Notes: generated from the sequence alone by a model not told the origin. 64,000 nt of DNA from Candidatus Roizmanbacteria bacterium RIFCSPHIGHO2_12_FULL_38_13 (GCA_001789555.1 MFZZ01000042.1:11244-75243), one strand, 5' to 3'; shown: positions 2,548 through 19,995, numbered from the stretch's first letter. Translations and numbers: made by a program.

Positions 2548-3351
2548 CTAATCTGTCTTCTGTTTCATTAAAAACGTCAAAAAGAAGATTACCAAAGTTA
2601 TAAGAACGATTGTTCCTCCCGTTGAAAGATTTAAATAAAATGACACAAATATTCCCGAAATAACGGAAAAAATGGAGATGATCTCGGAGTATATAATGGT
2701 TTGTTTAAAGCTTTTTTTAAGTTGTAATGCGGCGACAACGGGGATAACAATAAGTGCCGATATGAGAAGCACTCCAACAACGGGTATAGCCAATGAAACA
2801 GTCAGGGCAGTCAATATAATAAGGAGGGTATTGATAAATTTTGTCGGAATACCGCTTACCTTTGCCGACTCCTCGTCAAATGTCACGTAAACAAGCTCTT
2901 TATAAAATGCGATAAGCAAAGCTATGACTATCGCACCAAGTACTCCAATCATATACACATCGGATTGTTTGACTGTTACGATGCTTCCAAATAAATAATT
3001 GAACAAGTCTACTCTAAATCCGTGGGCAATACTGATAAGTACGATTGCCAGAGCCAGACTGCCCGATAGAAATATCGCAAGAGCAGATTCGCCGTATACT
3101 TTTTTGCTACTGCGCAGTTTTTCAATTGAAATAGAAGAAATAACAGTCGAGACCAGAGCCGTAATCATGGGATTGAGCTTCAATATCAACCCGAATGCTA
3201 TTCCGGCCAGTGAAACATGAGCCAAAGTATCGGCAATAAGTGAATATCTCCTCAAAACCAAAAATATTCCAATCAAAGGTGCAATAACCGCGATGATAAA
3301 TCCGGCTTCAAGACCTCGAACTATAAAACCATATTGAAAAATTTCCAGCAT
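2548..3351 (-). CDS. metal (Zn/Mn) ABC transporter permease, ABC-3 family
   Basis: Polytopic membrane protein typical of ZnuB/MntB/TroC. Its start abuts the ATPase gene stop (1-nt overlap). Confidence 0.8.
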   Translation of the reverse strand: MLEIFQYGFIVRGLEAGFIIAVIAPLIGIFLVLRRYSLIADTLAHVSLAGIAFGLILKLNPMITALVSTVISSISIEKLRSSKKVYGESALAIFLSGSLALAIVLISIAHGFRVDLFNYLFGSIVTVKQSDVYMIGVLGAIVIALLIAFYKELVYVTFDEESAKVSGIPTKFINTLLIILTALTVSLAIPVVGVLLISALIVIPVVAALQLKKSFKQTIIYSEIISIFSVISGIFVSFYLNLSTGGTIVLITLVIFFLTFLMKQKTD

Positions 3352-4112
3352 TAGTGGTTGTGTAAAATCAATCTAACTTGGGCGCCATAAAGTTTTTTCA
3401 GACCATCATTTTTTATAAAATCTTTGGGGTTGCTGTCGTATATAAGTGTTTGATTGATACAGGCCATTTCAGTTGTTTCATGAGTAATAACATCGATATC
3501 ATGGGAAACAAGTATTAATGTCAAATGCAGTTCCTGGTTTAGCTTCTTGAGAAGTCCATAAAATTCTTCTTGCGTTTTTATATCAACTCCGATCGTTGGT
3601 TCGTCAAGAAATATCACTTCCGGTTGACCGGCCAAAGCTTTGGCTATAAACACTCGTTGTTGTTGTCCTCCCGACAGATCGCCGATGATTTTATTTCGCA
3701 GGTCCCACATATCTACTTGTTCTAACGATTTTTTAACTATTGCATGGTCGGAGTCAGTGAGTGAATGAAACAACCCACGTTTTCCGATGCGTCCCATATT
3801 CACCACTTCTTTAACAGTGATCGGAAAGTTAGTATCAAAATTCACGGCTTTTTGAGGAATATACCCGACCTTTGACCAGTAACTGAATTTTTGTATATCC
3901 TGACCAAACAAAAATATCTTGCCAGATGTCGGTTTGAGTAGACCAAGCATTATTTTTACAAGTGTAGTTTTACCTCCGCCATTTGGGCCAACTATGCCAA
4001 GATAATCACCCTTATGAACGTTTAAAGTAATATTTTTCAGTACGTCTTTTTCTCCATATGAAAAGGAGACATTTTTGACCTCAATTATATTTTGGCTGTG
4101 ATCTACTGACAT
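3351..4112 (-). CDS. metal ABC transporter ATP-binding protein
   Basis: Walker A GPNGGGKTT, signature LSGGQQQR, Walker B IFLDEPT. Confidence 0.85.
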   Translation of the reverse strand: MSVDHSQNIIEVKNVSFSYGEKDVLKNITLNVHKGDYLGIVGPNGGGKTTLVKIMLGLLKPTSGKIFLFGQDIQKFSYWSKVGYIPQKAVNFDTNFPITVKEVVNMGRIGKRGLFHSLTDSDHAIVKKSLEQVDMWDLRNKIIGDLSGGQQQRVFIAKALAGQPEVIFLDEPTIGVDIKTQEEFYGLLKKLNQELHLTLILVSHDIDVITHETTEMACINQTLIYDSNPKDFIKNDGLKKLYGAQVRLILHNH

Positions 4113-5047: not shown

Positions 5048-5439
5048 TCTTGGCAGAGGCCAAAAAATTCTAAATGGTGATGATCGATCAGAAACTTGGA
5101 TTTTTCGTTGATTTTCTTGTCAAAATTTATTTCATTCATCTCCACATCTTCGATCGTCCCACATTTATTGCAAATCAGATGGTGATGATGATAGTTTTTA
5201 TTGACAAGCTCATATCTTTTCTTACCCTCACCAAGTTCGATGGAGTAAACAACACTCATCTTTACAAAAAGCTCGAGCGATCTATAAACCGAAGCAAGAT
5301 CGACCCGAATATTCTTTTTGTCCAAAGCATCATGTATTTCCTCGGCAGAGAGGGGATAGTTCGACAGTACCTTTATGATTTCTAGACGAGGTTTTGTCAC
5401 TCGAAATCCTTTTTCTTTGAGTAGAGAAACAATGTTCAT
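5038..5439 (-). CDS. Fur-family metalloregulator (Zur-like)
   Basis: Winged-helix N-terminus, HHHHLICNKCG and a C-terminal CQDC pair. It is the first gene of the znu-like operon. Confidence 0.8.
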   Translation of the reverse strand: MNIVSLLKEKGFRVTKPRLEIIKVLSNYPLSAEEIHDALDKKNIRVDLASVYRSLELFVKMSVVYSIELGEGKKRYELVNKNYHHHHLICNKCGTIEDVEMNEINFDKKINEKSKFLIDHHHLEFFGLCQDCQ

Positions 5440-5628: not shown

Positions 5629-6207
5629 TCACTTAGATTTTTTAAGATCGGCAATTTCTTTTTTTTGTTCTATCATTTTTAATTCTCGGCCGACCATAAA
5701 TTTATTCATTTTCTCCAGCACTTTATTTTTATCGCTGATTTCTCCTGTCCTTTCGACTATTTTACCCTCAAGTCCTTCTGTATATTCTGCCAATTTTTTC
5801 TCAAGGTTCTTTCTGACTGAAATATCTTCTATGGCCAGAATAATGAGTCGCACCGAATCTATTTGTCTTGCATTAAGGATCATTGTTCTTTCTCCAATTG
5901 TTTTAAAAACATGAAAAACTTCATAATCTCTAACAACTTTTTTCTCGGGCAGGATTTTTTCCAATAAATTTTTCAGTTCGGGAATATCCCACTGACCGTT
6001 GCCTAAATTATATAGCAGCATATTCTCCGTTTCTTTTTTTGTAACTTGGAAGGTATCGTAGAAAATTGGGTTAGCTGTAATCACCCGAAGATCGGCATCA
6101 AGAATTAGGAAGGACTCCCTGGCGACATCTACCAATGTTGTCATGTAATGCAGAGCAGTCTTTATGTCTTCTGTGAACGGTGTTTCTTTATCATTATCAT
6201 CTTTCAC
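5629..6207 (-). CDS. stand-alone PAS-domain protein with C-terminal coiled coil
   Basis: PAS-like block (FLILDADLRVITANPIFYDTF ... GERTMILNAR) followed by a heptad-rich tail. No output domain is present. Confidence 0.5.
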   Translation of the reverse strand: MKDDNDKETPFTEDIKTALHYMTTLVDVARESFLILDADLRVITANPIFYDTFQVTKKETENMLLYNLGNGQWDIPELKNLLEKILPEKKVVRDYEVFHVFKTIGERTMILNARQIDSVRLIILAIEDISVRKNLEKKLAEYTEGLEGKIVERTGEISDKNKVLEKMNKFMVGRELKMIEQKKEIADLKKSK

Positions 6208-6353
6208 GGCTGACCCCTTTCTAATAATTTGTTACATATTTGTAACTATTATTACGTTATCCAGAATTATGCGTTTTGTCAAGTGCGAAAGGGATTGTTT
6301 TTTTAGGCACATATTGTCCGAAATTTCCATTTAAATCTTTTTTTGAGAGCCAT

Positions 6354-6383
6354 TGGGGATGACCGGATAGACGGGTTTTGGAC
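6354..6383 (-). repeat. cassette-junction repeat R1 (GGATAGAC family, resembles a tRNA 3' end)
   Basis: TGGGGATGACCGGATAGACGGGTTTTGGAC. About 21 of 25 positions match R5. Confidence 0.6.
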
Positions 6384-6405
6384 AGGAATGTTATAATGAA
6401 GGGAA

Positions 6406-7293
6406 ATGCTCCATAAAATTTCTTATTTATTTCCGAATAAAAACGATCAAGAAAAAGATTTTTGCCGAAATTTACTACTACTTTTTGGAAAGCTACAAAA
6501 TACAGTAAAAAGTTCTGATCAGTTAATAATATTTCCTTCATATCCTAAAAATTCTTTACCTGTAACAGTAGTTAAAAGTGATTCTATTCCTTTTCCTCAA
6601 GTAGTATTTGAAACTGAAAAAGAAATATTGTTGAAGATGAAGTATTTTTATCTGACTTCGAGAAAAGACAATTCAGTAAAGTCAGAGACTTTTAATTCAC
6701 ATAAAGATACAGTGGCAAAAAAAGACAACATTGGCAGTTATATACAATTAACAGCTGGTTCAACTCAATTATTTCAACTTTCGTTAGGTGAAATACATCG
6801 GAGAATTGGGAAACATATAGTCCGTATAGATCATACAGGTGTGAATATTCCTTCAGCGATAATAAATAGAAATGAATGGAGTCAGTTAATAAAAAATTTA
6901 TCAAGGGAATGTAATATCTATAACTATCCAACAGGTGAAGATTGGCCATTTGTTCTTCCTTCGACCGAAGAAGAGTTTAAAAATGATATTACAGATTTTC
7001 ATATGGTTCGCAAACCAAAATTTGAATTAGTTTATGATCAATATTTATCTATTCCAACGATTCAATTTGATATAGAAACTGATTTGATAAGAAAAAAAGT
7101 TGAAGAATTATTACCCAATCCTTATGGGATTAGTTTTCCCGACTTGGCTGATTTTTTTAGAACTGTTTATATTTATCATCCATGGGGAGGATTGGCAATA
7201 CGCTTTGATATTGGTTTTAAAAATAATGATCAGAAAAGTGATTGGGAAACAGGAGAATGGTTAGTTAAAGATGGAGGAAGAATAAAATTCTGA
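6406..7293 (+). CDS. hypothetical protein (possible VOC/glyoxalase-like fold); true start may be 6637
   Basis: Long ORF. VRIDHTGVNIP resembles the first beta-strand/metal ligand of VOC proteins. The N-terminal ~77 codons are doubtful. Confidence 0.4.
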   Translation: MLHKISYLFPNKNDQEKDFCRNLLLLFGKLQNTVKSSDQLIIFPSYPKNSLPVTVVKSDSIPFPQVVFETEKEILLKMKYFYLTSRKDNSVKSETFNSHKDTVAKKDNIGSYIQLTAGSTQLFQLSLGEIHRRIGKHIVRIDHTGVNIPSAIINRNEWSQLIKNLSRECNIYNYPTGEDWPFVLPSTEEEFKNDITDFHMVRKPKFELVYDQYLSIPTIQFDIETDLIRKKVEELLPNPYGISFPDLADFFRTVYIYHPWGGLAIRFDIGFKNNDQKSDWETGEWLVKDGGRIKF

Positions 7294-7301
7294 ATTTGCC
7301 T

Positions 7302-7327
7302 TGAGTGACCGACGGGGATCGAACCCA
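7302..7327 (-). repeat. R2: partial copy of the 3' end (T-arm plus acceptor strand) of a tRNA-His-like gene
   Basis: GTGACCGACGGGGATCGAACCC versus GTGACCGACGGGACTCGAACCC in the intact tRNA-His at 10147-10223 (20 of 22), same orientation. Confidence 0.7.
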
Positions 7328-7344
7328 GTTGATATAATTTCTCT

Positions 7345-8268
7345 ATGACTTCAATATCTGCCACTGCCACTAACTTTCATAAACGAATAGTTATAAGAAT
7401 TGAAGAGTTAATGAAAGACAATATTGTTGATATAAAAATCCCCCTTCAGGGAATGACGAGTAAAGTTTTTTTTATTAAAACTGAAGAGAGAAGAGAATAT
7501 GCTGTAAAGTATGGAAAGGAGGCAAAGAATGATATTCCTGCATATGAACTGCTTGCAAAAGAAAAAATAAACATACCTGTTCCCAAGCTATATAACTCTT
7601 TTATATTGGAAGAATGTACTGTTTTAATATTTGAGAAAATTAGCTATCCTCTACTTGAATCAATACGGACTGCAGAAATGTCAAGATATATCCCTTCGAT
7701 GGTTCAAAACCTTAAAAAACTTCATACAATAAAATTTCATAAACCACGTCTTCTTATTGAGAAAGAAAGTAATAAAACTTGGAAAGAAATGATGTTATCT
7801 TTATTTGAAATTAATGATTGGGAGAAGATAAGTAATAGAGAAGGTTTAGATACAGATTTGATTCAAACATCCGTCAAAGAGATAAGAGAAAAGATACGTA
7901 AAACTAATTTTCATATTCATGAATATTCCTTTCTTCATACAGATTTTAATCAAAGAAATTTATTTATTGATCCTAAGAGCGATAAGATAACTGGAATCAT
8001 TGATTGGGAAGAAGCCATATTTGGGGATCCATTATATGATTTTGCAAGAATTCGTATGTTTATTTGGCATTTTCATTTAGGAAGAAAAGTAGTTGAAGAT
8101 TACTATAAACTATTAAGCTATACTCCAGAACAAAAAAAACGAGAAGAATTATATTGGCTTTTACGTGTTATCCAATATCTCCGTTGGTATTCTGAGGAAT
8201 TAAGTGAGTTTAATATAGCTAGAGTAAAATTACATCAAGATTTATTAAGAAAATATCAATGGAGATAA
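7345..8268 (+). CDS. aminoglycoside phosphotransferase (APH)/choline-kinase-family kinase
   Basis: Catalytic loop HTDFNQRNLFID and IIDWEEAIFGDPLYDF (Brenner and DFG-equivalent motifs of the APH fold). Confidence 0.7.
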   Translation: MTSISATATNFHKRIVIRIEELMKDNIVDIKIPLQGMTSKVFFIKTEERREYAVKYGKEAKNDIPAYELLAKEKINIPVPKLYNSFILEECTVLIFEKISYPLLESIRTAEMSRYIPSMVQNLKKLHTIKFHKPRLLIEKESNKTWKEMMLSLFEINDWEKISNREGLDTDLIQTSVKEIREKIRKTNFHIHEYSFLHTDFNQRNLFIDPKSDKITGIIDWEEAIFGDPLYDFARIRMFIWHFHLGRKVVEDYYKLLSYTPEQKKREELYWLLRVIQYLRWYSEELSEFNIARVKLHQDLLRKYQWR

Positions 8269-8305
8269 AAGTAATTTATTTTGATATAAAAATTCATATC
8301 AATTA

Positions 8306-8334
8306 TGGTTGTCTGGATAGACTAGTTTCGAACC
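8306..8334 (-). repeat. cassette-junction repeat R3 (GGATAGAC family)
   Basis: TGGTTGTCTGGATAGACTAGTTTCGAACC. About 25 of 29 positions match R5. Confidence 0.6.
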
Positions 8335-8371
8335 TGCATAAAAATATAAGCGATACTGCTATAATAATAAC

Positions 8372-8665
8372 ATGCAAAAAATAAATATTACTAAACGTAT
8401 TATTGCGGAAATTAAGCCAGATCTTAAATCCAAGTTTAAAGTAAAGACTATTGGTTTGTTTGGTTCGGTAGCAAGAGCCGAGGATGACCAACATAGTGAT
8501 ATTGATCTTCTTGTTGAATTTTTTGAGCCTGTCAGCTTCTTCCATTTTTTGGATTTAGAAGAGTATCTCAAAGATAAGCTGAAGCAAGATATGGATTTGG
8601 TTACAAAAAATGCTTTGAAACCTCATATAGGCAAACAAATTCTCCAAGAAGTCACTTATTTATGA
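8372..8665 (+). CDS. MNT-type nucleotidyltransferase (antitoxin of a HEPN/MNT module)
   Basis: GLFGSVARAEDDQHSDIDLLVEF motif (GSxxRG...DxD). Its stop overlaps the next start as ATGA. Confidence 0.8.
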   Translation: MQKINITKRIIAEIKPDLKSKFKVKTIGLFGSVARAEDDQHSDIDLLVEFFEPVSFFHFLDLEEYLKDKLKQDMDLVTKNALKPHIGKQILQEVTYL

Positions 8666-9011
8666 TTCAACGTATACAAACAGACTATATTCAAGATATT
8701 GTCACTTCAATTGAAGATATTGAAGAATTTATAAAAGATATGTCATATGCAGAATTTACTGAAGATCGTAAAACCGCGAAGGCAGTGGTACGCAGTTTTG
8801 AAGTAATGGCGAAGCAATAAAAAAAATTGATGATAATTTGAAACAAAAATATTTCGGAGTACCTTGGAAGAAAATTGCAGGTATGCGAGATAAGTTGATC
8901 CATGAATATTTTGGTATCGATTTAGAAATCATTTGGAAAACAGTTCATGAAGATTTGCCTCAGATAGAGCCTCCGTTAAAGCAGATTTTAAATGATCTTC
9001 AAAATGAATAA
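8662..9011 (+). pseudogene. HEPN (DUF86) toxin gene with a 1-nt deletion near 8807
   Basis: Frame 1 reads ...AVVRSFEVMAKQ stop. The adjacent frame continues GEAIKKIDDNLKQKYFGVPWKKIAGMRDKLIHEYFGIDLEIIW (the RxxxxH HEPN motif). Joining them needs one extra base between GTA and GGC. Confidence 0.7.
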
Positions 9012-9026
9012 TGAATGGTATTTAGT

Positions 9027-9467
9027 TTACTGGGCAGACGAGTTTAGAACCGAAACTTTTTTTTTATCTTTAAGTAGAATATTTTTAGCCTGTCTTGCGG
9101 AAATAATTTGAGTTTTCTTCCATTTCTTCAAAGGCAGAAGATGTTTTTTATCACCTGTGACCAAGTAGTCTGCATTGCTCTCTTCTGCTAAATCTAGAAG
9201 ATATGCATCATTAGTATCCTGAGGCAGAGATACTAAGGCTTGCGTATTGTAGAGTATGCCAATATTTAGTAATTCAGTAACATCTTCCAATATTTTTTGA
9301 TCGACACCGAACTTATAAATCAGTTTGTCGAATATTTCTGTATATAATCCCACAGAGAGACATAATTCAAATTTTTTCTGTTGAATACCTTTTAAAAGAG
9401 CAGCTGGAATACCACCAAAAAGCGCGCCTGACAAAATAATATTGGGGTCAAGTATTACTTTATGCAT
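9027..9467 (-). CDS. PIN-domain toxin
   Basis: ILDPNIILSGAL at the N-terminus and NADYLVTGDKKHLL near the C-terminus, as in the PIN_3-type toxin family. Confidence 0.7.
   Translation of the reverse strand: MHKVILDPNIILSGALFGGIPAALLKGIQQKKFELCLSVGLYTEIFDKLIYKFGVDQKILEDVTELLNIGILYNTQALVSLPQDTNDAYLLDLAEESNADYLVTGDKKHLLPLKKWKKTQIISARQAKNILLKDKKKVSVLNSSAQ
9031..9051 (-). repeat. cassette-junction repeat R4 (shortened GGATAGAC-family copy)
   Basis: TGGGCAGACGAGTTTAGAACC. 16 of 18 positions match R5. It overlaps the last codons of the PIN ORF. Confidence 0.5.
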
Positions 9468-9732
9468 TTTTAATTAAGTTGTAAGCTTCATCTTCAGTTA
9501 ATGTAGAAATATCTTTTCCTTGCTGTTTCAACCATTTATTAAAGTATTTTCTGCCTTTAGAAGTAAGATTATCTATATTAAGGTCAGTTTTTTGAGATGT
9601 TGTCGACTTGATATACAATTCAGACAAACCCAGCTTTAAAATTTCTGGGTCGCTTAAAACAGGGTATTTGGATTTTATTGTGTTAATCGTATCACGTATT
9701 TCAGGCGTGATAGTGAGTCGGATAGTTTGCAT
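9460..9732 (-). CDS. putative antitoxin of the PIN module
   Basis: 90 aa ORF overlapping the PIN start by 8 nt. No motif recognised. Confidence 0.4.
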   Translation of the reverse strand: MQTIRLTITPEIRDTINTIKSKYPVLSDPEILKLGLSELYIKSTTSQKTDLNIDNLTSKGRKYFNKWLKQQGKDISTLTEDEAYNLIKNA

Positions 9733-9782
9733 ATAGAGACATTATAAGGCTTTTATAGCCTTTTTGCAACCTTTATTGCTTA

Positions 9783-9812
9783 TGGGTGACTGGATAGACG
9801 AGTTTAGAACCC
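9783..9812 (-). repeat. cassette-junction repeat R5 (GGATAGAC family)
   Basis: TGGGTGACTGGATAGACGAGTTTAGAACCC. Shares TGGGTGAC and GAACCC with the tRNA-His 3' end. Confidence 0.6.
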
Positions 9813-9820
9813 AAATAGGA

Positions 9821-10087
9821 TTAAAACTTTAAGGGACAAGAAAATCCATAACAGTTTCCTGAAGTCTGTTCATAACTCCAAATAGAAGCGAGTGTAGTAG
9901 ATAAGATAATGAATTCAATAAATAAGACTACTATAATCAAAATTATCTTCAAAAGTGATCTAAAGAAACTATTTTTTATATTTTTCCAAAAGGACAATCT
10001 CCAGATTTTATATGGAATAAAAGTGAAAGCAGCTATAAATATTCCGAAAGTAAGAAGGCGAATGATTAAGGTTATGATAGCACCCAT
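9821..10087 (-). CDS. small membrane protein
   Basis: 88 aa with three hydrophobic segments. Confidence 0.4.
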   Translation of the reverse strand: MGAIITLIIRLLTFGIFIAAFTFIPYKIWRLSFWKNIKNSFFRSLLKIILIIVVLFIEFIILSTTLASIWSYEQTSGNCYGFSCPLKF

Positions 10088-10146
10088 ATGAATAATAATC
10101 AGTTATTGAATATATATTCAAGAGATTGTGAGATTTTGATACATTT

Positions 10147-10223
10147 TGGGGTGACCGACGGGACTCGAACCCGCGACAGCCTGCTCCACAAGCAGGTGCT
10201 CTACCAACTGAGCTACGGTCACC
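10147..10223 (-). tRNA. tRNA-His (GTG) with encoded G-1 and encoded CCA
   Basis: The reverse complement folds as a cloverleaf: G-1, GTGACCG acceptor, D-arm AGCTCAGTTGGTAGAGC, anticodon loop TTGTGGA, T-arm GCGGG-TTCGAGT-CCCGT, then CGGTCAC-C-CCA. Confidence 0.9.
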
Positions 10224-10371: not shown

Positions 10372-11241
10372 TTACGAGAAATACGTTTCCTGCCAGTGCG
10401 GGTCGGTTTCAACCGTAAGATCAAGATAAACTTTTTTATTTATTGCAAGTGCGATCTCTTTTCTGGCATAACTGCCTATTTCCTTTATTTTTCTTCCTCT
10501 TGCACCAATAAGCATTTTTTTATAGCGGTCGGCAGTTGTTAATATTCTTGCCTTTATATACATGACTCCGTTGCCGCGTTCTTTGATCTCATCAATCAAA
10601 ATATGTGAAGAATAAGGTATCTCCTCGCCCATCATGAGAAAGATTTTTTCACGAATGAGCTCGGCTATAAAGCCTGTGCTGTCCATATTCAGTATGGGAT
10701 AGACGAGACCCTCATGAGTAAATTCGCTTTCCGTTTTTTCCGGTAAAATCTCAAAGATATAATCTAGGAGAGGTTTCATATGTTTTTTTTCCAAAGCGGA
10801 GATGCGAAAAACTTTCTGAAATTCATCTTCGATAAATTTGTACTGCACCATATATTTTGGGTCTTTATTATCCATTTTGTTATATACAAGGATGACCGGA
10901 GCTTTCATTTTTCGCGCGATGCCAAGCACTTTTGCCTCTTCAAAATCCCGCCTCCTAGTTGGGTCGATCATATAAATAACAACATCTACTTTTTTATTTA
11001 CCTCACGAAGTGCTCGCTCGTTGATTTTTTTTGAAAGAAGGTCTTTTGTTTTTCCAAAAATACCAGGCGTATCGGTAAAAATGATGTTTCCTCGATCTTC
11101 ATGATAAAAACCCTGGATCACTTGTCTTGTGGTTTGCGGCTTTGGTGAGGTGATCGCGACTTTTTGACCAATAACATTGTTGACAAACGTGGATTTGCCG
11201 ACATTGGGGCGACCGAGCAATAATACATATCCTTCTTTCAT
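10372..11241 (-). CDS. era: GTPase Era
   Basis: G1 GRPNVGKST, G3 DTPG, G4 NKMD, plus a C-terminal KH domain. Confidence 0.9.
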   Translation of the reverse strand: MKEGYVLLLGRPNVGKSTFVNNVIGQKVAITSPKPQTTRQVIQGFYHEDRGNIIFTDTPGIFGKTKDLLSKKINERALREVNKKVDVVIYMIDPTRRRDFEEAKVLGIARKMKAPVILVYNKMDNKDPKYMVQYKFIEDEFQKVFRISALEKKHMKPLLDYIFEILPEKTESEFTHEGLVYPILNMDSTGFIAELIREKIFLMMGEEIPYSSHILIDEIKERGNGVMYIKARILTTADRYKKMLIGARGRKIKEIGSYARKEIALAINKKVYLDLTVETDPHWQETYFS

Positions 11242-11955: not shown

Positions 11956-12133
11956 CATAAACTCCTTAAATAAGTATTTTTGGGTTTTTATTTGATAAAA
12001 TATACTACCTTAACAATCAAATCATGCGGGGTCGCCCGCCTGCATCGCTATGCTGATACTAATAATTTTTAATAAAGATTAAAAGATAAACTAAAAGCTA
12101 GTTTACAAGAAACAATAAAGTTGTAAACAGGGC

Positions 12134-12215
12134 TGGGGGATCGTCTAATGGTAGCCAGCGCCGTTGGCGCGGTCTCGCCGAAAGTATTTAGGCGATGAGA
12201 CAACAGACTTTGGAT
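12134..12215 (+). pseudogene. relic 5' half of tRNA-Gln, interrupted by a 44-nt GC-rich insert
   Basis: 12134-12154 (21 nt) and 12199-12215 (17 nt) are identical to positions 1-21 and 22-38 of the intact tRNA-Gln at 12468. No 3' half follows. Confidence 0.8.
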
Positions 12216-12222
12216 AATTTGT

Positions 12223-12465
12223 ATGTTTTATACACATATATTAAAAAGTACATTAAAAAATTGGTATTATATCGGACATACATCCGATATAGATAAAAGA
12301 TTAAAAGAGCATAATAAAGGCAGAAGTAAATAAACTAAGCCTTATAAACCCTTTGAATTAGTATATTTCGAAAAATTTGAAACTAAAGGCGAAGCTTTTA
12401 AAAGAGAACAACAAGTAAAGAAATATAGACACGGAGAAGCATTTAAGAAATTATTAGATAAATAA
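12223..12465 (+). pseudogene. GIY-YIG nuclease (YhbQ/UPF0213-like) with an in-frame TAA
   Basis: My translation: MFYTHILKSTLKNWYYIGHTSDIDKRLKEHNKGRSK-stop-TKPYKPFELVYFEKFETKGEAFKREQQVKKYRHGEAFKKLLDK. It has the GIY-YIG-type YxYIL...YIGxT...RLxxHN...LVYxE...A..RE layout. The TAA is at 12331-12333. Confidence 0.75.
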
Positions 12466-12467
12466 TA

Positions 12468-12538
12468 TGGGGGATCGTCTAATGGTAGGACAACAGACTT
12501 TGGATCTGTTTATCCAGGTCCGAATCCTGGTCCCCCAG
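12468..12538 (+). tRNA. tRNA-Gln (TTG), CCA not encoded
   Basis: Cloverleaf: acceptor TGGGGGA/TCCCCCA, D-arm GTCT-AATGGTA-GGAC, anticodon arm ACAGA-CTTTGGA-TCTGT, T-arm CCAGG-TCCGAAT-CCTGG, discriminator G. Confidence 0.9.
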
Positions 12539-12546
12539 CAAACTTT

Positions 12547-12996
12547 GTGCAAACAATAATGATACATTCTGAAAATAAAGATAAATTTATACTAACTTTA
12601 CATAGATATTTTATTTGGGCTTTATATCAACATAACACTTTTAAAACGGTAATACGTGTTGTTAATACAGAGAAGACTAGAGAATCTGCACGATTTACAA
12701 GACCTTTTGGATACGGAAGTTATTGGTATGCTTCTATGTATGTGGTAATTGAAGGTTGGTTAGAGCTCAAACTACATGACAAAAAAATTGATGTATTTTT
12801 GAAAAACGCAAAATATATTCAGTTGCTTAGAAGATATAGGAATGGCGTTTTTCATTTCCAAAAAGATTATGAAGATAATAGATTCGAAATCTTTTTTAAA
12901 CGAGGTTCCGATTTTAATATTTGGGTGGATGAGATTTATCATGAATTTGATAGATTTTTTTTAGAATGGTCAAAAAAAGAAAAAAGTGAAAAGTAA
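12547..12996 (+). CDS. hypothetical protein with an Rx4H (HEPN-like) motif
   Basis: 149 aa, looks alpha-helical. LLRRYRNGVFHFQ contains RNxxxH. The start may instead be the ATG at 12559. Confidence 0.5.
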   Translation: MQTIMIHSENKDKFILTLHRYFIWALYQHNTFKTVIRVVNTEKTRESARFTRPFGYGSYWYASMYVVIEGWLELKLHDKKIDVFLKNAKYIQLLRRYRNGVFHFQKDYEDNRFEIFFKRGSDFNIWVDEIYHEFDRFFLEWSKKEKSEK

Positions 12997-13107
12997 TTAA
13001 ATACAACACACAAAACTGTTTTTAGAATAAAAAGTTCCCACATAATCAACGAGTGCCAGCAAAGACGATCATGCCTTTCATTTTGATATAATTCACGCGT
13101 AGTCCTT

Positions 13108-14277
13108 ATGAGAAAAGAATATGCCGGTGTAGCGATTAATAAAATACATAATTATTACAAGTATCTTACCCATAAAGGTTTTATAGATAAGAATAGGGAA
13201 AGTCTAAGAGCGGCTTATTGGGTAATTAGTTGTTCTTACAACATAGACGTAGGAATGGGAAATAAAACTAAGGCAACTTGGGATGATTTTAAACGTGCTG
13301 GGTACGAAAACGAGGAAGCTTTTCATAACTTTATGGAATGCGTGTTTCAACTCGAAGGAGATTTAGATAATTATTTTAAGCCAGACTGGATTAATTTTGA
13401 TGATGAAGAGAGTTATATAAATGATAATATCCTCCAAGGTTTTCAGTCTAAAACTGGCTATTTTAATTATCAAAAACTAATTACTTTAATTGAGGAACTA
13501 AATTTCAACTATTCTAACAAAAAAACTTACTCAGCTTGTATGGTTTTAAGAGCAATTTTAGATCACGTACCTCCTCTACTTGATAAGGATGATTTTAGTA
13601 GTATGGTAAACAATCATATTTGGGGCAATGAAAAGTCTTCTCGAAGAAAAGCAGTAAAAGAATTACTTACTTTCAGAAATATTCCTGACGATGTATTACA
13701 TAATCAAATTACAGATAAAAGTGATGTGATTGATTTTACATACCTGCCGAGCAAATTTTCAGTTAACGTTTTATTAAAAGAATGTTTAGAGAGTAAAATC
13801 GAGTTAAAAACGGAGAGAAAATTTGTGAAACAAAAAAATAGGAAGGATGATAATATCAGTCTTGATTTGAGGATAGATTTTGATGAGCTAAAAATTTCTT
13901 GGGCTAATTATGCGGTGAGAAGTTGGGTATGGCCATCTTTTAGAATGGTTTTGTCTATCAACAACTTTCGGAATAAGTCGCCAGAATATATAAAAGCCTA
14001 TCTTGTAGGGAATTCAAATGATGGTAGATGGGAAGCTAGAAATTTTATTTTTTTGAATAGAGAAGATGAGAGTAAAACCAGGTCAAACGAAGATTTTAGA
14101 GTAGAAGCAGGATATAAAGAAAAAGTGTCGCTTTTTGTATCGAATTATGATATTGGATTCACAGGACAGAAACCTATGCCAGATATCGATAAAGATAGTT
14201 TAGAGCTGATTATCGAAACAGAAAGTGAAAAGAAGATAACTTTGCCTATAAAAGCTGGATGGATTTATAAAGGCTAA
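13108..14277 (+). CDS. hypothetical protein (389 aa), helical N-terminal part with an Rx4H motif and a beta-rich C-terminal domain
   Basis: Long intact ORF. MVLRAILDHVPPLL contains an Rx4H motif. No other motif recognised. Confidence 0.5.
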   Translation: MRKEYAGVAINKIHNYYKYLTHKGFIDKNRESLRAAYWVISCSYNIDVGMGNKTKATWDDFKRAGYENEEAFHNFMECVFQLEGDLDNYFKPDWINFDDEESYINDNILQGFQSKTGYFNYQKLITLIEELNFNYSNKKTYSACMVLRAILDHVPPLLDKDDFSSMVNNHIWGNEKSSRRKAVKELLTFRNIPDDVLHNQITDKSDVIDFTYLPSKFSVNVLLKECLESKIELKTERKFVKQKNRKDDNISLDLRIDFDELKISWANYAVRSWVWPSFRMVLSINNFRNKSPEYIKAYLVGNSNDGRWEARNFIFLNREDESKTRSNEDFRVEAGYKEKVSLFVSNYDIGFTGQKPMPDIDKDSLELIIETESEKKITLPIKAGWIYKG

Positions 14278-14319
14278 CAAAAACTATAAGTAACATCGGC
14301 TCCTGTTATACTATTCTTC

Positions 14320-14745
14320 ATGCAATTTAACCCACTTCTCCCCGAATTATATGTAACAGATTTCAAAAAGAGTCTGCATTTTTACACTAAAATAATCGGC
14401 TTTAAACTTGAATATTCCCGAGAAAATCCTCTTTTTGCCTTTCTTTCATTTGAAAGAGCTCAAATCATGATTCAGGAATTAGATCCAAATGAAGATCACG
14501 AATATATCACAGGAAAGTTTGCATACCCCTTTGGCAGAGGAATAAATTTTCAGATCGATACGAAAGATGTTGAACGAATATCAGATTCATTGAAAAAAAA
14601 TAACTGTCCATTACGAAGGGAATTAGAAGACAGTTGGTATAAAGTTAAAAATCTATTGCAAGGCTGTCGCCAAATTTTAGTTCAGGATCCGGACGGGTAT
14701 TTACTTCGGTTTTCTCAAGATATTGGGAAGAAGACTGTAAAGTGA
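14320..14745 (+). CDS. VOC (glyoxalase/bleomycin-resistance) family protein
   Basis: LYVTDFKKSLHFYTKIIGFKL at the N-terminus and LVQDPDGYLLRF at the C-terminus. Confidence 0.7.
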   Translation: MQFNPLLPELYVTDFKKSLHFYTKIIGFKLEYSRENPLFAFLSFERAQIMIQELDPNEDHEYITGKFAYPFGRGINFQIDTKDVERISDSLKKNNCPLRRELEDSWYKVKNLLQGCRQILVQDPDGYLLRFSQDIGKKTVK

Positions 14746-14776
14746 TTTGAGAACTTTTTTTGCTATACTTTCCCAT

Positions 14777-15502
14777 ATGTTCACCTACGACCAGATTTTT
14801 GCAAACAAAAAAAATATTCTCTTTGTGATGGCGCATCCTGACGATATTTTGGTTTATTATGCCGCGCTTGTTAATAAACTAGTAAAAGACAAAAAGAACA
14901 TTTATGTTTTAACTGTCAGTAACGGTGCTCGTGGAAGCCAGAAAAATATTATTAGTGAAGAAGAACTTGCAAAGAAACGACTTGATGAAGAAATAGCGGC
15001 TTTGAAATTTTTAGGTGTACCTAAGGAAAATGCCCACAGTTTAAATTACAAGGACGGTGAGCTGGAAAGTAACTATAAACTCATAGGTGAAGTGACGAAA
15101 TTAATAAGAAAATACAAAACAGATGTTGTTTGCACCCATGAACCGACGGGGATTTATTTAGAAACGTATAAAAAAGATGGTTTTTTTGTTCAGCATCGTG
15201 ATCATCGAAAAGTAGCAGAAGCAGTCGTTGATTCTGCATATCCTTTTTCAAGAGATCGATCTTTTTTCCCGGAGCATGCTAAAGAGGGTATTGAACCACA
15301 TACTGTTTATGATATTGTGTTAACAGATGAAGCAAAATATAATTTTTAGCTTGATTATACCGACGAATTAGAAACAAAGAAATCTGCAATGCGCATCCAT
15401 AAGTCTCAATTTGATGAAGAGTTTATTAATGATGTAGTTGAATCGGTGAAGTTTAATGAGAGATATCTAGAAAAGTATTTTTATGTGAAGTTGTTGTGGT
15501 GA
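14777..15502 (+). pseudogene. PIG-L/LmbE-family deacetylase with an in-frame TAG at 15347-15349
   Basis: ILFVMAHPDDILV and VQHRDHRKV motifs lie before the stop. The same frame continues LDYTDELETKKSAMRIHKSQFDEE..., the conserved C-terminal HxSQ block. Total length ~241 codons is normal for the family. Confidence 0.7.
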
Positions 15503-15520
15503 AAAATTCATACATCTTTA

Positions 15521-15967
15521 ATGAATACCCGCATAGAGCCGTTTCATTCCGATCTACAAAAACAAGTCAAGGATTTCGTTCTTGATGTATGGAAAGAGTT
15601 TGGATTATTTTATATGCCGGAGTATGATTCGGATTTAGATAATCCAGAAAAATTTTATATAAAAACAGGTGGAATGTTTTATGTACTTAAAGAGGAAGAT
15701 AAAATTATTGGGACTATCGGAATAATAAATAAACGCGATCATATCGCAGAATTTAAAAGATTTTATATAAATAAAAATTATCGAGGGAAAGGTTGCGGAA
15801 CTATGTTATTTAATAAAGCTATAGATTATTGTCTCAAAAATGATTTTAAAAAAGTTAAGTTTGCAACTGGAAAAGCATTCAAGCAAGGACATAAATTTTA
15901 TAAAAATAAAGGCTTTAAAGTAGTAAAAGAGAATGACGAGGATTATTATATGGAAAAGTTTCTTTAA
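15521..15967 (+). CDS. GNAT-family N-acetyltransferase
   Basis: NKNYRGKGCGTMLFNKAIDY acetyl-CoA binding block (R/Q-x-x-G-x-G/A). Confidence 0.75.
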   Translation: MNTRIEPFHSDLQKQVKDFVLDVWKEFGLFYMPEYDSDLDNPEKFYIKTGGMFYVLKEEDKIIGTIGIINKRDHIAEFKRFYINKNYRGKGCGTMLFNKAIDYCLKNDFKKVKFATGKAFKQGHKFYKNKGFKVVKENDEDYYMEKFL

Positions 15968-15988
15968 GAATTCTTAACCCAAAATCAA

Positions 15989-16284
15989 TTATTCAATACT
16001 TTCCTTCCCAAGCTTTTTAGAGAGTTGCTTAAAAAAATCCTGTAGTTCCTGAATCTCAAGAGGCTTTATCATTTTAGGTAAAAAATCAAATTCCTCAACT
16101 ACCATAAGATCGCTAGCAAAAAGGTATGGATCTATCTCAATACGAAACTTAGTTTTTACATCCTCTCTTAGATCCCAAAAAGTAAATTTCTGCAAAAGTA
16201 AAAAGTTTCAGATAAGAAGTCATCTTTACTTATGAGATCAATAATATCTGTTTGGTGCAGATTCAGGATAGTATCACTTTTCAT
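15989..16284 (-). pseudogene. frameshifted small ORF translationally coupled to 16281-16472 (possible degraded toxin)
   Basis: An ATG at 16284 overlaps the upstream stop as ATGA. That frame ends at 16168, and the reading continues in another frame as the 15989-16195 ORF. Confidence 0.3.
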
Positions 16285-16472
16285 ATAAAAAGTTCCATGA
16301 GTTTTTTTCTATTAGGAAAGAGATGTAGTTTGTTCCAGTATTTTTTTACTTCAGCTAATTTGATTTTTTTACCCTTTTCCGGTCCATAATTTATTTGTCT
16401 TTCAAGAAGAAAAATTCTGCCTTTTTCTGACTTTTTGAGTTCGTTTTCATTGTAATCCCAGACTGATTTCAT
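16281..16472 (-). CDS. small protein, possible antitoxin-like partner
   Basis: MKSVWDYNENELKKSEKGRIFLLERQINYGP...KYWNKL. From memory, resembles a short family found next to nucleotidyltransferase toxins in small genomes. Confidence 0.35.
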   Translation of the reverse strand: MKSVWDYNENELKKSEKGRIFLLERQINYGPEKGKKIKLAEVKKYWNKLHLFPNRKKLMELFI

Positions 16473-16811
16473 ATGATTTAAGTATAACATAGTTAAGGTT
16501 CGACACAGCAACCAGTGCCGGTAAATTTTTTGCTATGCTCAGAGTACTATTGGGAACCATTTGCTTGCCAAAATTAAATATTGATATGGGCAGTTATGAT
16601 TTTGGTGATAAACATGTCCGCGTAGGTTTTGGAAGAAAAAAATCTAATACTTAATGCTTCCGCGCCTAACTACTTTCTTTTGTGTTGTTTTTCGCAAAAT
16701 TTTACTTAGTCAACAATAGATATTGCTTTATGCTACAATACAAAGTAGTAAAAAAACGAGACCAAAAATGAAGGTTATCCAGTAATTCAAGGACTTCTTA
16801 CAAAAGAAAAT

Positions 16812-17699
16812 ATGAGTATTACGGAGTCCGTCATTAGACGGCATCAGATATTGCAATCAGCTGCTTTAAATAGTCTTAAATCTCTTAAATTAAATATACC
16901 ACCAAGTTTAACTCCAATTTCAACAAGCTATGATCGGGTAGTCTTTTGTGATCCGGAGATGAAGGTAATTGCAAAAGTATATGATCAAGGAAATATTCTA
17001 AAACATGAGTTTAATATGTTAACACAAGCTGAAGAAGCAGGGGTGCCAGTTCCACACGTTTTTGGTTTCACCGAGGGTAAACCTGCAGTACTTGTTACCC
17101 AGATGGTGCAAGGTAGCAAACTATCATCTGCGAATCCCAATTCAGCCCGTGAAGCCGGTATGTACTTACGCCGTTTCCACGAACTTAAAGCCAAACCCCC
17201 GTTTGCAGAAGGACAGGAAACTTGGCAAGATTATGTGCTCTCCAGAGCTGACAGAGCTATAGATTGGATGATGGCAAACAATATTCCAGACTTTCGTGGT
17301 GTCGATTTAAGATATTTACGTCAATTATTTCTAAAACAAAAACCCAATTTTACTGGAAGACCTGTAAAACGTCTTCACGGAGATTTTCAGCCAAATCACG
17401 TTCTCATTGATCCTACAGCTGATAAAGTGATGGCGTTTATTGATTTTGCTGATGCTCAACCCGGTGATCCTCTTTGGGATGTTGCGGTAGTGTCATTATG
17501 GGATAAACAAATAGCAGATTTAGTTTTGGGAGGATATAATTCTGAAGTTTTAGCAAATGCTGCAAAAGGCCTGCTTCCGTATTACAGACTGTTGCGGCAT
17601 TTAGTAGAAATTCCGTGGAGATTTAAACGAGGTCGTCGTGAATCCGACAAGTCGAACTTAGCAGCAATTCAAGGCATTCTTAAGGAAGAATTGCCTTAG
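16812..17699 (+). CDS. aminoglycoside phosphotransferase (APH)-family kinase
   Basis: HGDFQPNHVLID catalytic loop and FIDFADAQPGDPLWDVA. Visibly more GC-rich than its flanks. Confidence 0.75.
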   Translation: MSITESVIRRHQILQSAALNSLKSLKLNIPPSLTPISTSYDRVVFCDPEMKVIAKVYDQGNILKHEFNMLTQAEEAGVPVPHVFGFTEGKPAVLVTQMVQGSKLSSANPNSAREAGMYLRRFHELKAKPPFAEGQETWQDYVLSRADRAIDWMMANNIPDFRGVDLRYLRQLFLKQKPNFTGRPVKRLHGDFQPNHVLIDPTADKVMAFIDFADAQPGDPLWDVAVVSLWDKQIADLVLGGYNSEVLANAAKGLLPYYRLLRHLVEIPWRFKRGRRESDKSNLAAIQGILKEELP

Positions 17700-17905
17700 A
17701 GCGAAATGCGATTCTTAATGAGATATGGCATAGGTAAATCTTAGTTATAAAAGATAATCAAACTTGATAAAATGTGGCTTAAGTGGTTTACGACTAAAAA
17801 AAGTACTAAAATATACCTATGCCGCGGAAAGAAATGCAAAACCGAACAATTGAAATAATTTATACATTCTTTTCTACCAAAAGGCCAGCATAAAGTATAA
17901 ATGCC

Positions 17906-18952
17906 ATGAGGAAATTTATTTCCAATATTTCAAAACATGTAATTGTCACACAGGACCTAGCGGGCTACTCATATTTTGAAAATTTTTTAATTTCAACTGT
18001 TTCGACGATACTTCTTGTTCGATTTTACCTTCATCTTGCTAACTATCCGCAGATAGGTGTCGGCGGTCTACATATTGCCCACATGCTCTGGGGTGGACCA
18101 ATCCTTATGGTCGCGCTGATTTTGACACTGCTTTTCTTGGATCGCTGGATACGAGCATTTGCGGCAGTATTAGGAGGCATAGGATTCGGGTTTTTTATAG
18201 ATGAGCTTGGCAAATTTATAACTTCAGACAATAATTATTTCTTCCAGCCAACGATCGCACTGCTTTATGTCATTTTCATCATGCTTTATCTACTGCTTCT
18301 TTTTCTAAAAAAATATATGCATGTTACGTCATCGGAGTATTTGTCAAATGCAATAGACATATTCAGAGATGGTATCACTAATGGTATGTCACCTCAATCT
18401 AGAGAACAGATTATTGAATATTTAAAAAAGTCAGGTACCCAGATGACACTAATGACACTAAGCACTGTCATGTCAATAAAATTATTTGATAAAACGAGAG
18501 ATTTTTCTCCACTTGATAAGTTAAAAAAACAATATTTTAAATATCTTCACAAAACTGTCAATTCAACAGTTTTTCAAAAAATAGTTATCTTTTCTATTGC
18601 GCTGAAGGCACTGATTACTGGTGTTGTAGTCATAACTATAATTTTGGCAATAACGGGTGTTTGGATCGATATTTCAATGCTTTCAACAGATATCGAGGTT
18701 AATTTCAAATCTCTGGGATTAACCATAAGTACTGTAATTTCTGGAACTCTCGCGCTTGCAGGATTGGTATCATATCCGATATCTAAAAAACGAGCATTTC
18801 TTTTTTTTCGTTATTATCTGCTTTTTTCAATATTTATAGTGCAATTTTTTCTCTTCTGGGCTAATCAATTCGATGCGCTGACGGGTCTGTTCTTTGACAT
18901 CCTCGCCCTGCAGACTGTGAATATTATTCTCAAAGAGTCAAAGAATGAATAA
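17906..18952 (+). CDS. polytopic membrane protein
   Basis: 348 aa with many hydrophobic segments. Confidence 0.5.
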   Translation: MRKFISNISKHVIVTQDLAGYSYFENFLISTVSTILLVRFYLHLANYPQIGVGGLHIAHMLWGGPILMVALILTLLFLDRWIRAFAAVLGGIGFGFFIDELGKFITSDNNYFFQPTIALLYVIFIMLYLLLLFLKKYMHVTSSEYLSNAIDIFRDGITNGMSPQSREQIIEYLKKSGTQMTLMTLSTVMSIKLFDKTRDFSPLDKLKKQYFKYLHKTVNSTVFQKIVIFSIALKALITGVVVITIILAITGVWIDISMLSTDIEVNFKSLGLTISTVISGTLALAGLVSYPISKKRAFLFFRYYLLFSIFIVQFFLFWANQFDALTGLFFDILALQTVNIILKESKNE

Positions 18953-18974
18953 TTTGAAGAATTTATAACATTAA

Positions 18975-19610
18975 ATGACTGAACAAACTGTATTACTACA
19001 AATATTATTGATCTTCATTATCCCGGTAGTCCTTGCCTATTTGGGGATTATTCCAGTAAAGATAAGGTTGTGGCTATTTCTTATTTTATTTTTTTTAGTG
19101 ATTGGTGTTAGTTATTTTGAAAGAATGAGTTTTGATGAGCTTGGGATACGATGGGATAACTTCTATGAAAGTCTTGTACCTTATTTATTACTTACAATAT
19201 TAGGTGTTACTTTAATAATTATTGTCGCTAAACTACTTAATAAAAAAATTCATCCCAGATGGTGGGAAAATCCGCATTTTCAATTCATGTTTATTTTCCT
19301 AAGTATCGCACAGGAATTCATGTATAGAGGATTCTTGATGTTAAAACTGGAATTGGTTATTTCTTCGGTATTTTTTGTAGTAATTCTTAACACCTTGATA
19401 TATATGTTCCTTCATATAATTTATCCAAATAAAGCCAGTAATTTATCACTTACATTTCTTGGAGGATTGGCATTTGCAACTGTGTATTATTACTATCCCA
19501 ATCTCATTTTGATTTCTATTTCTCATGCAATTCTTAATTTCTTCGCCGTATTATATGGTCTAGTAGGATTTGGTAGTGCAAGTAAACTTAATAAAGCGTG
19601 GAACAAGTAA
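18975..19610 (+). CDS. CPBP-family intramembrane glutamic protease (CAAX protease-like)
   Basis: AQEFMYRGFL (EExxxR-type motif 1), FLHIIY, and SHAILNF (motif 3). Confidence 0.7.
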   Translation: MTEQTVLLQILLIFIIPVVLAYLGIIPVKIRLWLFLILFFLVIGVSYFERMSFDELGIRWDNFYESLVPYLLLTILGVTLIIIVAKLLNKKIHPRWWENPHFQFMFIFLSIAQEFMYRGFLMLKLELVISSVFFVVILNTLIYMFLHIIYPNKASNLSLTFLGGLAFATVYYYYPNLILISISHAILNFFAVLYGLVGFGSASKLNKAWNK

Positions 19611-19659
19611 AAAACTTGTTTAAAAAAAATTCAACTAGTCACAAAAAATAAAATCTAGT

Positions 19660-19995
19660 ATGGAAAAAAAAGTTCTTTTACTAAGAGCTGTCCACACACT
19701 ATTTGCAATTTATTTTATATCCTGCATCTTTTATATCTACTACGCAGTCATTGTCGCGCGTTTTAATCTGGTCTTGATTATAGCGATTGTCAGTCTTATT
19801 ATTGAGGGAGTCCTAGTTTTTATATTAAATGGAGGAGATTGCCCGCTTATTCACATTCAAAAGAAACTCGATGACCCCATACCTTTCTTCAATCTATTTC
19901 TTCCGGATCATCTCGCCAAGAAAGCAACCCCGTTTTTTACAAATGTTACATTTTTAGGATTAATTTTGTTGGTTATCAGATTTTTATTAAAGTGA
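19660..19995 (+). CDS. small membrane protein
   Basis: 111 aa with three hydrophobic segments. Confidence 0.45.
   Translation: MEKKVLLLRAVHTLFAIYFISCIFYIYYAVIVARFNLVLIIAIVSLIIEGVLVFILNGGDCPLIHIQKKLDDPIPFFNLFLPDHLAKKATPFFTNVTFLGLILLVIRFLLK

Follow-up and report, generated by a model that had tools for sequence, protein, structure and literature searches.

The window analyzed here is a 64,000-nucleotide stretch of DNA from Candidatus Roizmanbacteria bacterium RIFCSPHIGHO2_12_FULL_38_13, taken over its whole length, and the subject of this work is an array of short repeats and small gene units that lies beside the gene for tRNA-His. Read along the plus strand, the region runs from a PAS-domain gene through the array interval to tRNA-His and on to the gene for the GTPase Era. 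Four copies of one repeat family and one true fragment of the tRNA-His 3' end, all on the strand of tRNA-His, are found within 6353-9815, and these split the DNA beside the tRNA gene into five units of one or two genes each (Table 1, where copies of the family are labeled P-type and the plain tRNA fragment B-type, after the half-sites of the mechanism proposed below). The orientation of the repeats is constant regardless of the direction of the genes, and the units are tight, 0.3-1 kb in length with genes 9-60 nt from the sites. In the 64-kb window, a search with a 20-mer consensus that allowed for up to 3 mismatches gave three sites against an expectation of 0.00, and a looser pattern gave five against 0.46. 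No other good copy of the motif was found elsewhere in the window; rather than the many dispersed copies of a generic repeat, there are four in 64 kb, all in one array.

Repeats and gene units beside tRNA-His

The four copies of the motif differ in preservation, and their scores against a hidden Markov model (HMM) profile drop with distance from the tRNA, from 40.2 bits for the nearest through 29.8 and 26.7 to 17.8 bits for the furthest. The second copy, m2, leaves the family consensus directly after CCCAGT and overlaps the stop codon and thus the end of the open reading frame (ORF) of the PIN toxin. The B-type fragment agrees with tRNA-His of this genome at 20/22 positions and with that of L013 at 22/22 (by eye; L numbers denote the other loci that were compared). 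In the tRNA sense it continues into TCAAGGCAAATTCAG, which resembles the recombinase-side flank (P') next to the large serine recombinase (LSR) genes described below, as judged by comparison of attL junctions.

Table 1. Features of the array and of its two flanks, listed along the plus strand
Feature	Position	Strand	Content or tRNA-sense sequence	Evidence and remarks
PAS-domain gene	5629-6207	minus	distal array flank	Pfam PAS_4, 4.3e-05
P-type site m4	6353-6388	minus	TTCCTGTCCAAAACCCGTCTATCCGGTCATCCCCAA	HMM 17.8 bits; most degenerate copy
Unit E	6389-7301	plus	295-aa protein gene, 6406-7293	ORF list; furthest from tRNA
B-type fragment	7305-7326	minus	plain tRNA-His T-arm and acceptor without the 5-nt insertion	not a member of the family
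Unit D	7327-8302	plus	APH-family kinase, 7345-8268	Pfam APH, 1.1e-18
P-type site m3	8303-8337	minus	GCAGGTTCGAAACTAGTCTATCCAGACAACCATAA	HMM 26.7 bits; acceptor-like part mutated
Unit C	8338-9028	plus	MntA-type nucleotidyltransferase, 8372-8665; frameshifted HepT/HEPN, 8662-8820 plus 8838-9011	Pfam matches; NF047752 match
P-type site m2	9029-9055	minus	TTTCGGTTCTAAACTCGTCTGCCCAGT	HMM 29.8 bits
Unit B	9056-9779	minus	90-aa putative antitoxin, 9460-9732; PIN toxin, 9027-9467	Pfam PIN_3, 4e-14; NCBIfam TIGR00305, 4.9e-15
P-type site m1	9780-9815	minus	TTTGGGTTCTAAACTCGTCTATCCAGTCACCCATAA	HMM 40.2 bits; best-preserved copy; GGTTC to CAC 26 nt
Unit A	9816-10146	minus	88-aa predicted membrane protein gene, 9821-10087	ORF list; nearest tRNA
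tRNA-His (GUG)	10147-10222	minus	intact; 3' end faces the array	ARAGORN; Rfam tRNA model, 69.1 bits
Era GTPase	10372-11241	minus	conserved proximal flank	Pfam matches

The proteins of units A and E have no Pfam or NCBIfam match. A homologue of the former is encoded 1.65 kb downstream of tRNA-His in L021, and no homologue of the latter was found among the loci compared. The APH module of unit D recurs in L010 between two P-type sites (tblastn, 48% identity), and the homology, which takes in the gene together with its bounding sites, goes no further on either side, where the neighbors differ. In unit C stop codons interrupt the translation of the HEPN gene; the HepT/HEPN member of the MntA/HepT pair (8662-9011) is broken by a frameshift and is called as a split gene in other strains as well. 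Beyond m4 the PAS-domain gene follows, a motif-PAS junction that is shared with the distant genome L091, where a PAS homologue comes after a motif copy. The array as a whole is identical in eight strains with an identical Era protein (the window contig and seven near-identical contigs from other samples). From their positions unit A would be the newest and unit E the oldest, and the units of the window look immobile now and partly decaying.

A preliminary description of this DNA had placed the five repeats, all in the orientation of tRNA-His and four of them in one family, and this is borne out here, as is the presence of the tRNA gene, the end of which lies at 10222 (ARAGORN) and not at 10223. 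The "about 4-6 extra bases" that it gave for the repeats are real and number exactly 5. Its five units likewise stand, with the amendments that the 295-aa protein has no match to justify the label "VOC-like", that the HEPN gene is frameshifted and that the copy at 9029-9055 runs into the PIN ORF.

The motif as a tRNA-His mimic

The motif family is about 30 nt long and reads, in the tRNA sense, (T)TGGGTTC(T/G)AA(A/G)nnC(G/A)T(C/T)nnnCCAGTCACCC. It is a mimic of the T-arm and acceptor of tRNA-His with exactly 5 extra bases: the distance from GGTTC to the acceptor-end CAC is 26 nt in 24/24 motif copies, from many genomes, that keep this part, and 21 nt in 26/26 tRNA-His genes examined. As in an attP-type site, the outer block GGTTC(G/T)AA of the motif is displaced outward by 5 bp relative to that of the tRNA. 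A half-turn shift that is constant across genera speaks for a constraint of function and against decay. The outer 16 nt, GGTWCGAAnnTCGTCC, are common to this His-type motif and to the first of two tRNA-Glu-type sites in L112 (see below), the inner part following the acceptor of the respective tRNA. In truncated copies (window 9029-9055, L014 and L011) the match to the consensus breaks off near CCAG(T). A long variant of the motif was also seen, with a hairpin-forming insert of ~29 nt (L105, reoriented, 324-385 and 1064-1125; L092, reoriented, 5325-5385), the hairpin stem of which differs compensatorily between loci (ATGGT/ACCAT versus ATCCT/AGGAT).

The repeats are most likely copies of a recombination site and not genes or RNA elements. 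Searches with Rfam (E-values up to 10) and ARAGORN returned only tRNA-His and tRNA-Gln and no match over any repeat. The possibility that the motif is a tRNA gene or pseudogene was rejected, as there is no covariance-model or cloverleaf match and the repeats cover only the segment of the T-arm and acceptor. Folding of the 24-copy alignment with RNAalifold gave no consensus structure. TTGGG and CCCAG can pair in 87.5% of cells, and this sole possible 5-bp stem shows no covariation beyond shuffled controls; a structured RNA or attC-like hairpin was dropped on these grounds. The lack of a fold and of covariation means that conservation is at the level of the sequence, as expected of a DNA site to which protein binds.

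The motif is also tied to tRNA-His outside the window. In a set of 80 loci of related species that were fetched via Era, it occurs in L010 (two copies), L011, L014, L062 and L084, and every copy is downstream of tRNA-His on the same strand. A scan of metagenomes with a degenerate pattern gave 19 matches, of which 15 are low-GC family members that look genuine and four are high-GC chance matches. Where such a family member has enough upstream sequence, tRNA-His is found 0.57-3.2 kb upstream on the same strand in 7/8 cases, L092 being the exception. A profile built from 24 copies finds further arrays, with three copies in L096, two in L097 and several in L105, L090 and L089, and one-gene units are spaced 0.57-1.3 kb apart in L096, L105, L090 and L089. 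In viral contigs the motif has 0 matches. Its tie to tRNA-His across genera argues against a generic repeat, and a motif scattered without regard to tRNA genes, which the preliminary description had named as the finding that would overturn its view, is not what related genomes contain. The interval is fixed among strains with an identical Era protein and completely different between species, and in this respect too the variable content foreseen in that description was found. The cargo of arrays in other genomes consists of toxin-antitoxin and accessory genes, including zeta toxins, AbiEii, a GNAT acetyltransferase, HAD hydrolases and NYN-domain proteins.

Several further observations concern DNA near tRNA-His in these genomes. 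In two distant genomes (L014 12738-13408; L104, reoriented, 2856-3526) a conserved pair of genes, for proteins of 113 and 110 aa, comes immediately past a motif copy; it stands in opposite orientations relative to the motif and looks like a further recurrent module. Fragments resembling tRNA-His occur at L053 15687-16169, L102 (reoriented) 1560-1640 and L062 13587-13680; this set includes a 93-nt "tRNA-Arg" call with both ends as in tRNA-His and a GC-rich insert after the D-loop. In L062 a degenerate tRNA-His pseudogene is located just past the motif copy.

Large serine recombinases at tRNA 3' ends in relatives

No recombinase was found by Pfam among the 40 ORFs of the window that were scanned, nor by jackhmmer seeded with XerD, Cre and resolvase among its ORFs of at least 100 aa, and there is none among 34 ORFs inside arrays of other genomes (Pfam; among the matches listed, which are the first 25 of 43 families). 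Relatives, however, carry LSR genes exactly at tRNA ends. In another Roizmanbacteria genome (L016) the ORF for a 519-aa LSR runs into the antisense of the tRNA-His 3' end and is followed by genes for a TraG-like ATPase, for a protein of 285 aa similar to the Replic_Relax proteins found in related elements, and for a reverse transcriptase. The domains of the family are PF00239, PF07508 and PF13408; the L016 protein has 935 relatives, and the 120 of these that are listed carry the resolvase and recombinase domains, most with the zinc ribbon as well. Matches of the family to CcrA, CcrB, CcrC and XisF are weak and far below the family cut-offs, so it is not a member of the Ccr group, and viral contigs yielded no LSR relatives. 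In all genomic contexts fetched, the LSR gene and a tRNA gene of the opposite strand meet at their 3' ends, and this tRNA is tRNA-His (L016, L108, L109/L110 and L117), tRNA-Tyr (L111), tRNA-Glu (L113, L118 and L119) or tRNA-Thr (L115/L116); tRNAs other than tRNA-His make up seven of the places. One chromosomal site can hold either an LSR insert or motif-bounded units: L117, with an LSR at tRNA-His, and L094 and L097, both with motif-bounded units, have in common the order DnaB, MBL-fold protein, small protein, tRNA-His. The LSR ORFs at L016 10955-12514, L108 10001-11560 and L024 8274-10001 read through the antisense of the tRNA gene, and the last 10-25 residues of such proteins thus depend on the state of integration.

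Two of these loci show how such elements accumulate and decay. In L112 there is no tRNA beside the recombinase gene, and the recombinase-side flank is instead joined to AGGTACGAACATCGTCCCAGATGGGGTAC, a tRNA-Glu-like end with a site length of 28 nt versus 23 nt in the real tRNA-Glu of L113 (+5). At a distance of 6.4 kb there is another 28-nt site, after which come a 180-nt copy of the 3' end of the recombinase gene (96% identity) and then unrelated DNA. L112 is thus a set of three tandem elements with +5 sites at all junctions, the last of the elements being reduced to a deletion remnant, a layout which shows that insertion into an occupied site and later decay both occur in the LSR family. In L014, 100 nt of an L016-type recombinase end are followed by a 7.9-kb jump to the end of the reverse-transcriptase gene, and a motif copy is kept at the far end; this locus is a deletion derivative of an L016-type LSR element minus 7.9 kb. 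For the elements at tRNA-Tyr and tRNA-Glu in L111, L113 and L119 a far-end site was not found.

The junctions also bear on the position of the crossover. The acceptor 3' strands match, and co-vary with, their own 5' strands at LSR junctions, which would place the crossover no earlier than the final bases of the acceptor stem, in the neighborhood of GTC[AC]CC; a crossover between AG and TC was given up for this reason and replaced by one at about positions 71-72. On the right-hand side, the sequence behind the tRNA resembles that behind motif copies for 25-40 nt (L062 and L096). A conserved box, TTTAGAGCTTCAYAACAATCT, follows CAC, usually after 14-16 nt (range 7-19), both behind the tRNA and behind motif copies in several genera (for example L084 5301-5340, L096 7558-7600, L097 13660-13700, and window 10105-10146, minus); conceivable roles for it are those of a right half-site, of a promoter and of a processing signal. 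The idea of a 5-bp offset on the right-hand side as well was rejected, since the distance of the box from CAC (7-19 nt) has no B-versus-P pattern. A 14-bp palindrome, TGGACTATAGTCCA, at the L062 junction was likewise set aside as crossover center because one of this size is expected about once per locus by chance. By eye, the distal site of the L112 element E1 may have imperfect dyad symmetry (TGCATTGA-GGGTAC-TCATTGCA), and no convincing symmetric partner was found in the same way for the His-type motif.

A second tRNA gene of the window has surroundings of its own. At 12132-12539 a partial 5' half of tRNA-Gln, interrupted by a GC-rich insert of ~44 nt, is followed by a small GIY-YIG-like gene with an in-frame TAA stop (~12223-12465) and then by intact tRNA-Gln (12468-12539), an arrangement suggestive of a homing-type insertion in which part of the tRNA was duplicated. 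GIY-YIG genes also lie immediately upstream of tRNA-His or tRNA-Glu in L100 (1763-2011), L102 (504-662) and L118 (11565-11906), as at the tRNA-Gln of the window, and their pairing with tRNA 5' ends is a recurrent one. Downstream of tRNA-Gln (window 12547-20400) is a run of accessory genes, including those for a glyoxalase, PIG-L, GNAT and APH proteins and a CAAX protease, which is replaced by different genes in one strain with identical Era (L002 1-7600). In L024, L027 and L032 the 3' end of tRNA-Gln is adjoined by an LSR of another, distant family (~22% identity); no +5 mimic of tRNA-Gln was found in these three loci or in the tRNA-Gln island of the window.

Proposed origin of the array and comparison with known systems

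Based on the spacing of the motif and on the recombinases of relatives, we propose that the array results from repeated insertions at the 3' end of tRNA-His, most likely by the LSR family found in relatives, and that the window, which is without an LSR, retains an old and decaying tandem accretion of integrase-less units. We put the probability of this at about 0.62. In the proposed mechanism the T-arm and acceptor strand of tRNA-His would serve as the bacterial left half-site (B) of attB. The incoming unit would carry an attP, the left half-site (P) of which mimics the same tRNA segment with the block GGTTC(G/T)AA 5 bp further from the crossover, and recombination would take place near tRNA positions 71-72, within GTC[AC]CC. 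The T-loop block GGTTCGAA of the tRNA would be the outer contact of the target half-site, possibly that of the zinc-ribbon domain (ZD) of the recombinase, and the motif would be the donor half-site in which this block is set 5 bp further out. Integration would keep the tRNA intact, while P and the crossover region would end up at the far end of the insert. If the tRNA-proximal junction can be used again, units would stack with the newest beside the tRNA, and the P-type copies would decay with age. The small, clean units may be remnants of larger elements or cassettes that were moved in trans.

In view of the LSR genes at tRNA ends, and of tandem accretion and decay in relatives, the array is consistent with a known kind of process. 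The preliminary description had seen in the repeats decaying att copies left by repeated insertion at tRNA-His, and the falling HMM scores and the link to tRNA-His across genera support that view. Its further suggestion of a mechanism apart from integrase islands is not supported in that form, as relatives have an LSR exactly at the tRNA end and related loci show both accretion and decay. What the window contains, five tandem units flanked by att-type sites on one strand and free of recombinase, resembles the make-up of the islands known as cis-mobilizable elements (CIMEs) or as pseudo-SCC elements, SCC being the staphylococcal cassette chromosome.

Several points weigh against this proposal. 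Over the 64 kb, tblastn with six LSRs finds no LSR gene or remnant, in agreement with the earlier statement, also upheld by Pfam and jackhmmer, that the window has no integrase. Its units are clean and without recombinase debris, whereas L014 and L112 show debris, and clean units of this kind fit poorly with random deletion remnants. The B-type fragment at 7305-7326, in the middle of the array, is not predicted by the simple model. The flank beside LSR genes is TCAATGCATTTTG, as against ATAAG...TTTAGAGCTTCA after most motif copies, and the His-type motif was never seen at the far end of an intact LSR element at tRNA-His, the elements in L108, L109, L117 and L016 exceeding the 10-kb flank or the end of the contig. 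The likeness of the right flanks over 25-40 nt is also a difficulty, long blocks of identity being more typical of tyrosine integrases. Finally, classical serine integrases do not, to our knowledge, use attL as a target.

The contrast between the clean units of the window and the messy remnants of L014 and L112 leaves room for true cassettes moved in trans, and a possible, if rather unlikely, alternative is that the units are not leftovers of larger elements at all. They would instead be integrase-less cassettes, small circles with an attP-like site of ~30-65 bp, that were captured at tRNA-His in an integron-like manner by a serine recombinase acting in trans. Only the left half-site would then distinguish donor from target, so that the target would be regenerated each time, and the right flanks, which are alike at the tRNA and at motif copies, suggest such regeneration. 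The size of the units (0.3-1 kb) fits, with one or two intact genes packed tightly against the sites, as do the like one-gene units 0.57-1.3 kb apart in L096, L105, L090 and L089 and the absence of a recombinase among the array ORFs of other genomes (0/34 among the matches listed). The recurrence of the APH module in L010, bounded exactly by sites and with other neighbors, and of the 113/110-aa pair beyond a motif copy in L014 and L104, in opposite orientations, is also what captured cassettes would give. On the other side, neither a free circular cassette nor one that had moved recently was seen, eight strains have an identical array, the sites are the more decayed the further they lie from the tRNA, and one gene is broken; full elements do give rise to integrase-less units by deletion, as in L014 and L112, and toxin-antitoxin genes are the expected survivors of decay. 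Extended to the Microgenomates of the candidate phyla radiation (CPR), the same idea would mean an integron-like capture system that uses a serine recombinase instead of IntI, with single-gene cassettes and a tRNA-His-mimic site with a 5-bp spacer, inserted serially at the tRNA-His 3' end, and this we advance only tentatively.

Much less probable are classical islands of tyrosine integrases, in which the repeats would be attL/attR identity blocks of lost tRNA-targeting phages or integrative and conjugative elements (ICEs). It is true that tRNA 3' ends are the classic targets of tyrosine integrases (PMC5704250), that similar right flanks of 25-40 nt (L062 and L096) resemble identity segments, and that the plain fragment at 7305-7326 looks like a displaced tRNA 3' end. 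However, phmmer and jackhmmer with XerD and Cre found no tyrosine recombinase in 2221 ORFs of ~120 loci other than on one unrelated high-GC contig, and there is none in the first 25 of 43 Pfam families of the array ORFs. Moreover, displacement should leave a true tRNA end, and the conserved copies found across genera, with their invariant 5-nt insertion, are not such ends. The weakest reading, in which the motif takes no part in insertion and is a generic repeat, a terminator, or a structured RNA or hairpin of the REP or attC type, is largely refuted. The motif is indeed short, intergenic, repeated and able to pair TTGGG with CCCAG in 87.5% of cells, but the 64 kb contain just four copies, each of them beside tRNA-His, the link to tRNA-His holds in other genomes too, and the orientation of the motif ignores gene direction. 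It has neither a structure by RNAalifold, covariation beyond shuffles, nor an Rfam match over the repeats.

If repeated LSR-driven insertion is the origin of the array, tRNA 3' ends would be hotspots of gene gain in the small genomes of CPR bacteria. These loci also supply dozens of natural pairs of sites, the donor half-site being the target half-site with 5 bp added. Such pairs would lend support at the sequence level, from uncultured bacteria, to the structural model of attP/attB discrimination by serine integrases, and they would provide a lead to recombinases with tRNA-defined and possibly re-usable landing sites. The motif would also serve as an annotation mark for island boundaries and for the relative order of insertion beside tRNA-His. 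A full-text search of the literature found no prior report on CPR bacteria, and broader queries gave no paper on the subject.

The nearest precedent for the geometry is that of Listeria phage serine integrases, where the ZD motif of attP is present in attB "shifted by 5 bp toward the center" (Rutherford et al. 2013; PMC3783163). As in the A118 family of these phages, the same outer block lies 5 bp further from the crossover in the attP-like motif than in the attB-like tRNA (24/24 versus 26/26), and the +5 is repeated in the two tRNA-Glu-type sites of L112 (28 versus 23 nt). The array differs in that the shift is seen in the left half only, and in that the right halves look interchangeable and occupied sites are reused, which is not known of classical phage integrases. 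The closest analogues of the array as a whole are the composite islands of SCC and pseudo-SCC elements in staphylococci, where an LSR (CcrAB or CcrC) targets the 3' end of rlmH and units without recombinase are included (PMC8407400). Like these, the system proposed here has an LSR that targets the 3' end of a housekeeping gene without destroying it, and tandem units that are each bounded by direct repeats of the integration site and in many cases lack a recombinase; unlike them, it has a tRNA as target, CPR hosts, units of 0.3-1 kb rather than tens of kb, an element-side site that is a mimic of the tRNA end with a fixed 5-bp insertion, and a recombinase that is not Ccr.

The accretion of ICEs and of integrative and mobilizable elements (IMEs) with decayed CIMEs, as in ICESt1/ICESt3 of Streptococcus thermophilus, provides a second close parallel, with the decay step seen in L014 and L112 (PMC5704250). 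The CIMEs described depend on tyrosine integrases, and five tiny, clean units in a row are unusual; in the same review, IMEs with site-specific serine recombinases disrupt dispensable genes, and tRNA 3' ends are listed as targets for IMEs with tyrosine recombinases only (PMC5704250). Integrons share with the array units of one or two promoter-poor genes, a single orientation of sites with each unit ending in a conserved site, apparent growth at one fixed end, and a cargo rich in toxin-antitoxin and accessory genes. The array is not a classical integron, as the preliminary description had already held, for neither the window nor the related arrays searched have an intI tyrosine recombinase, and there is no folded attC palindrome or attC-like structure. 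Its anchor is instead a tRNA gene, beside which the genes of the units stand in both orientations.

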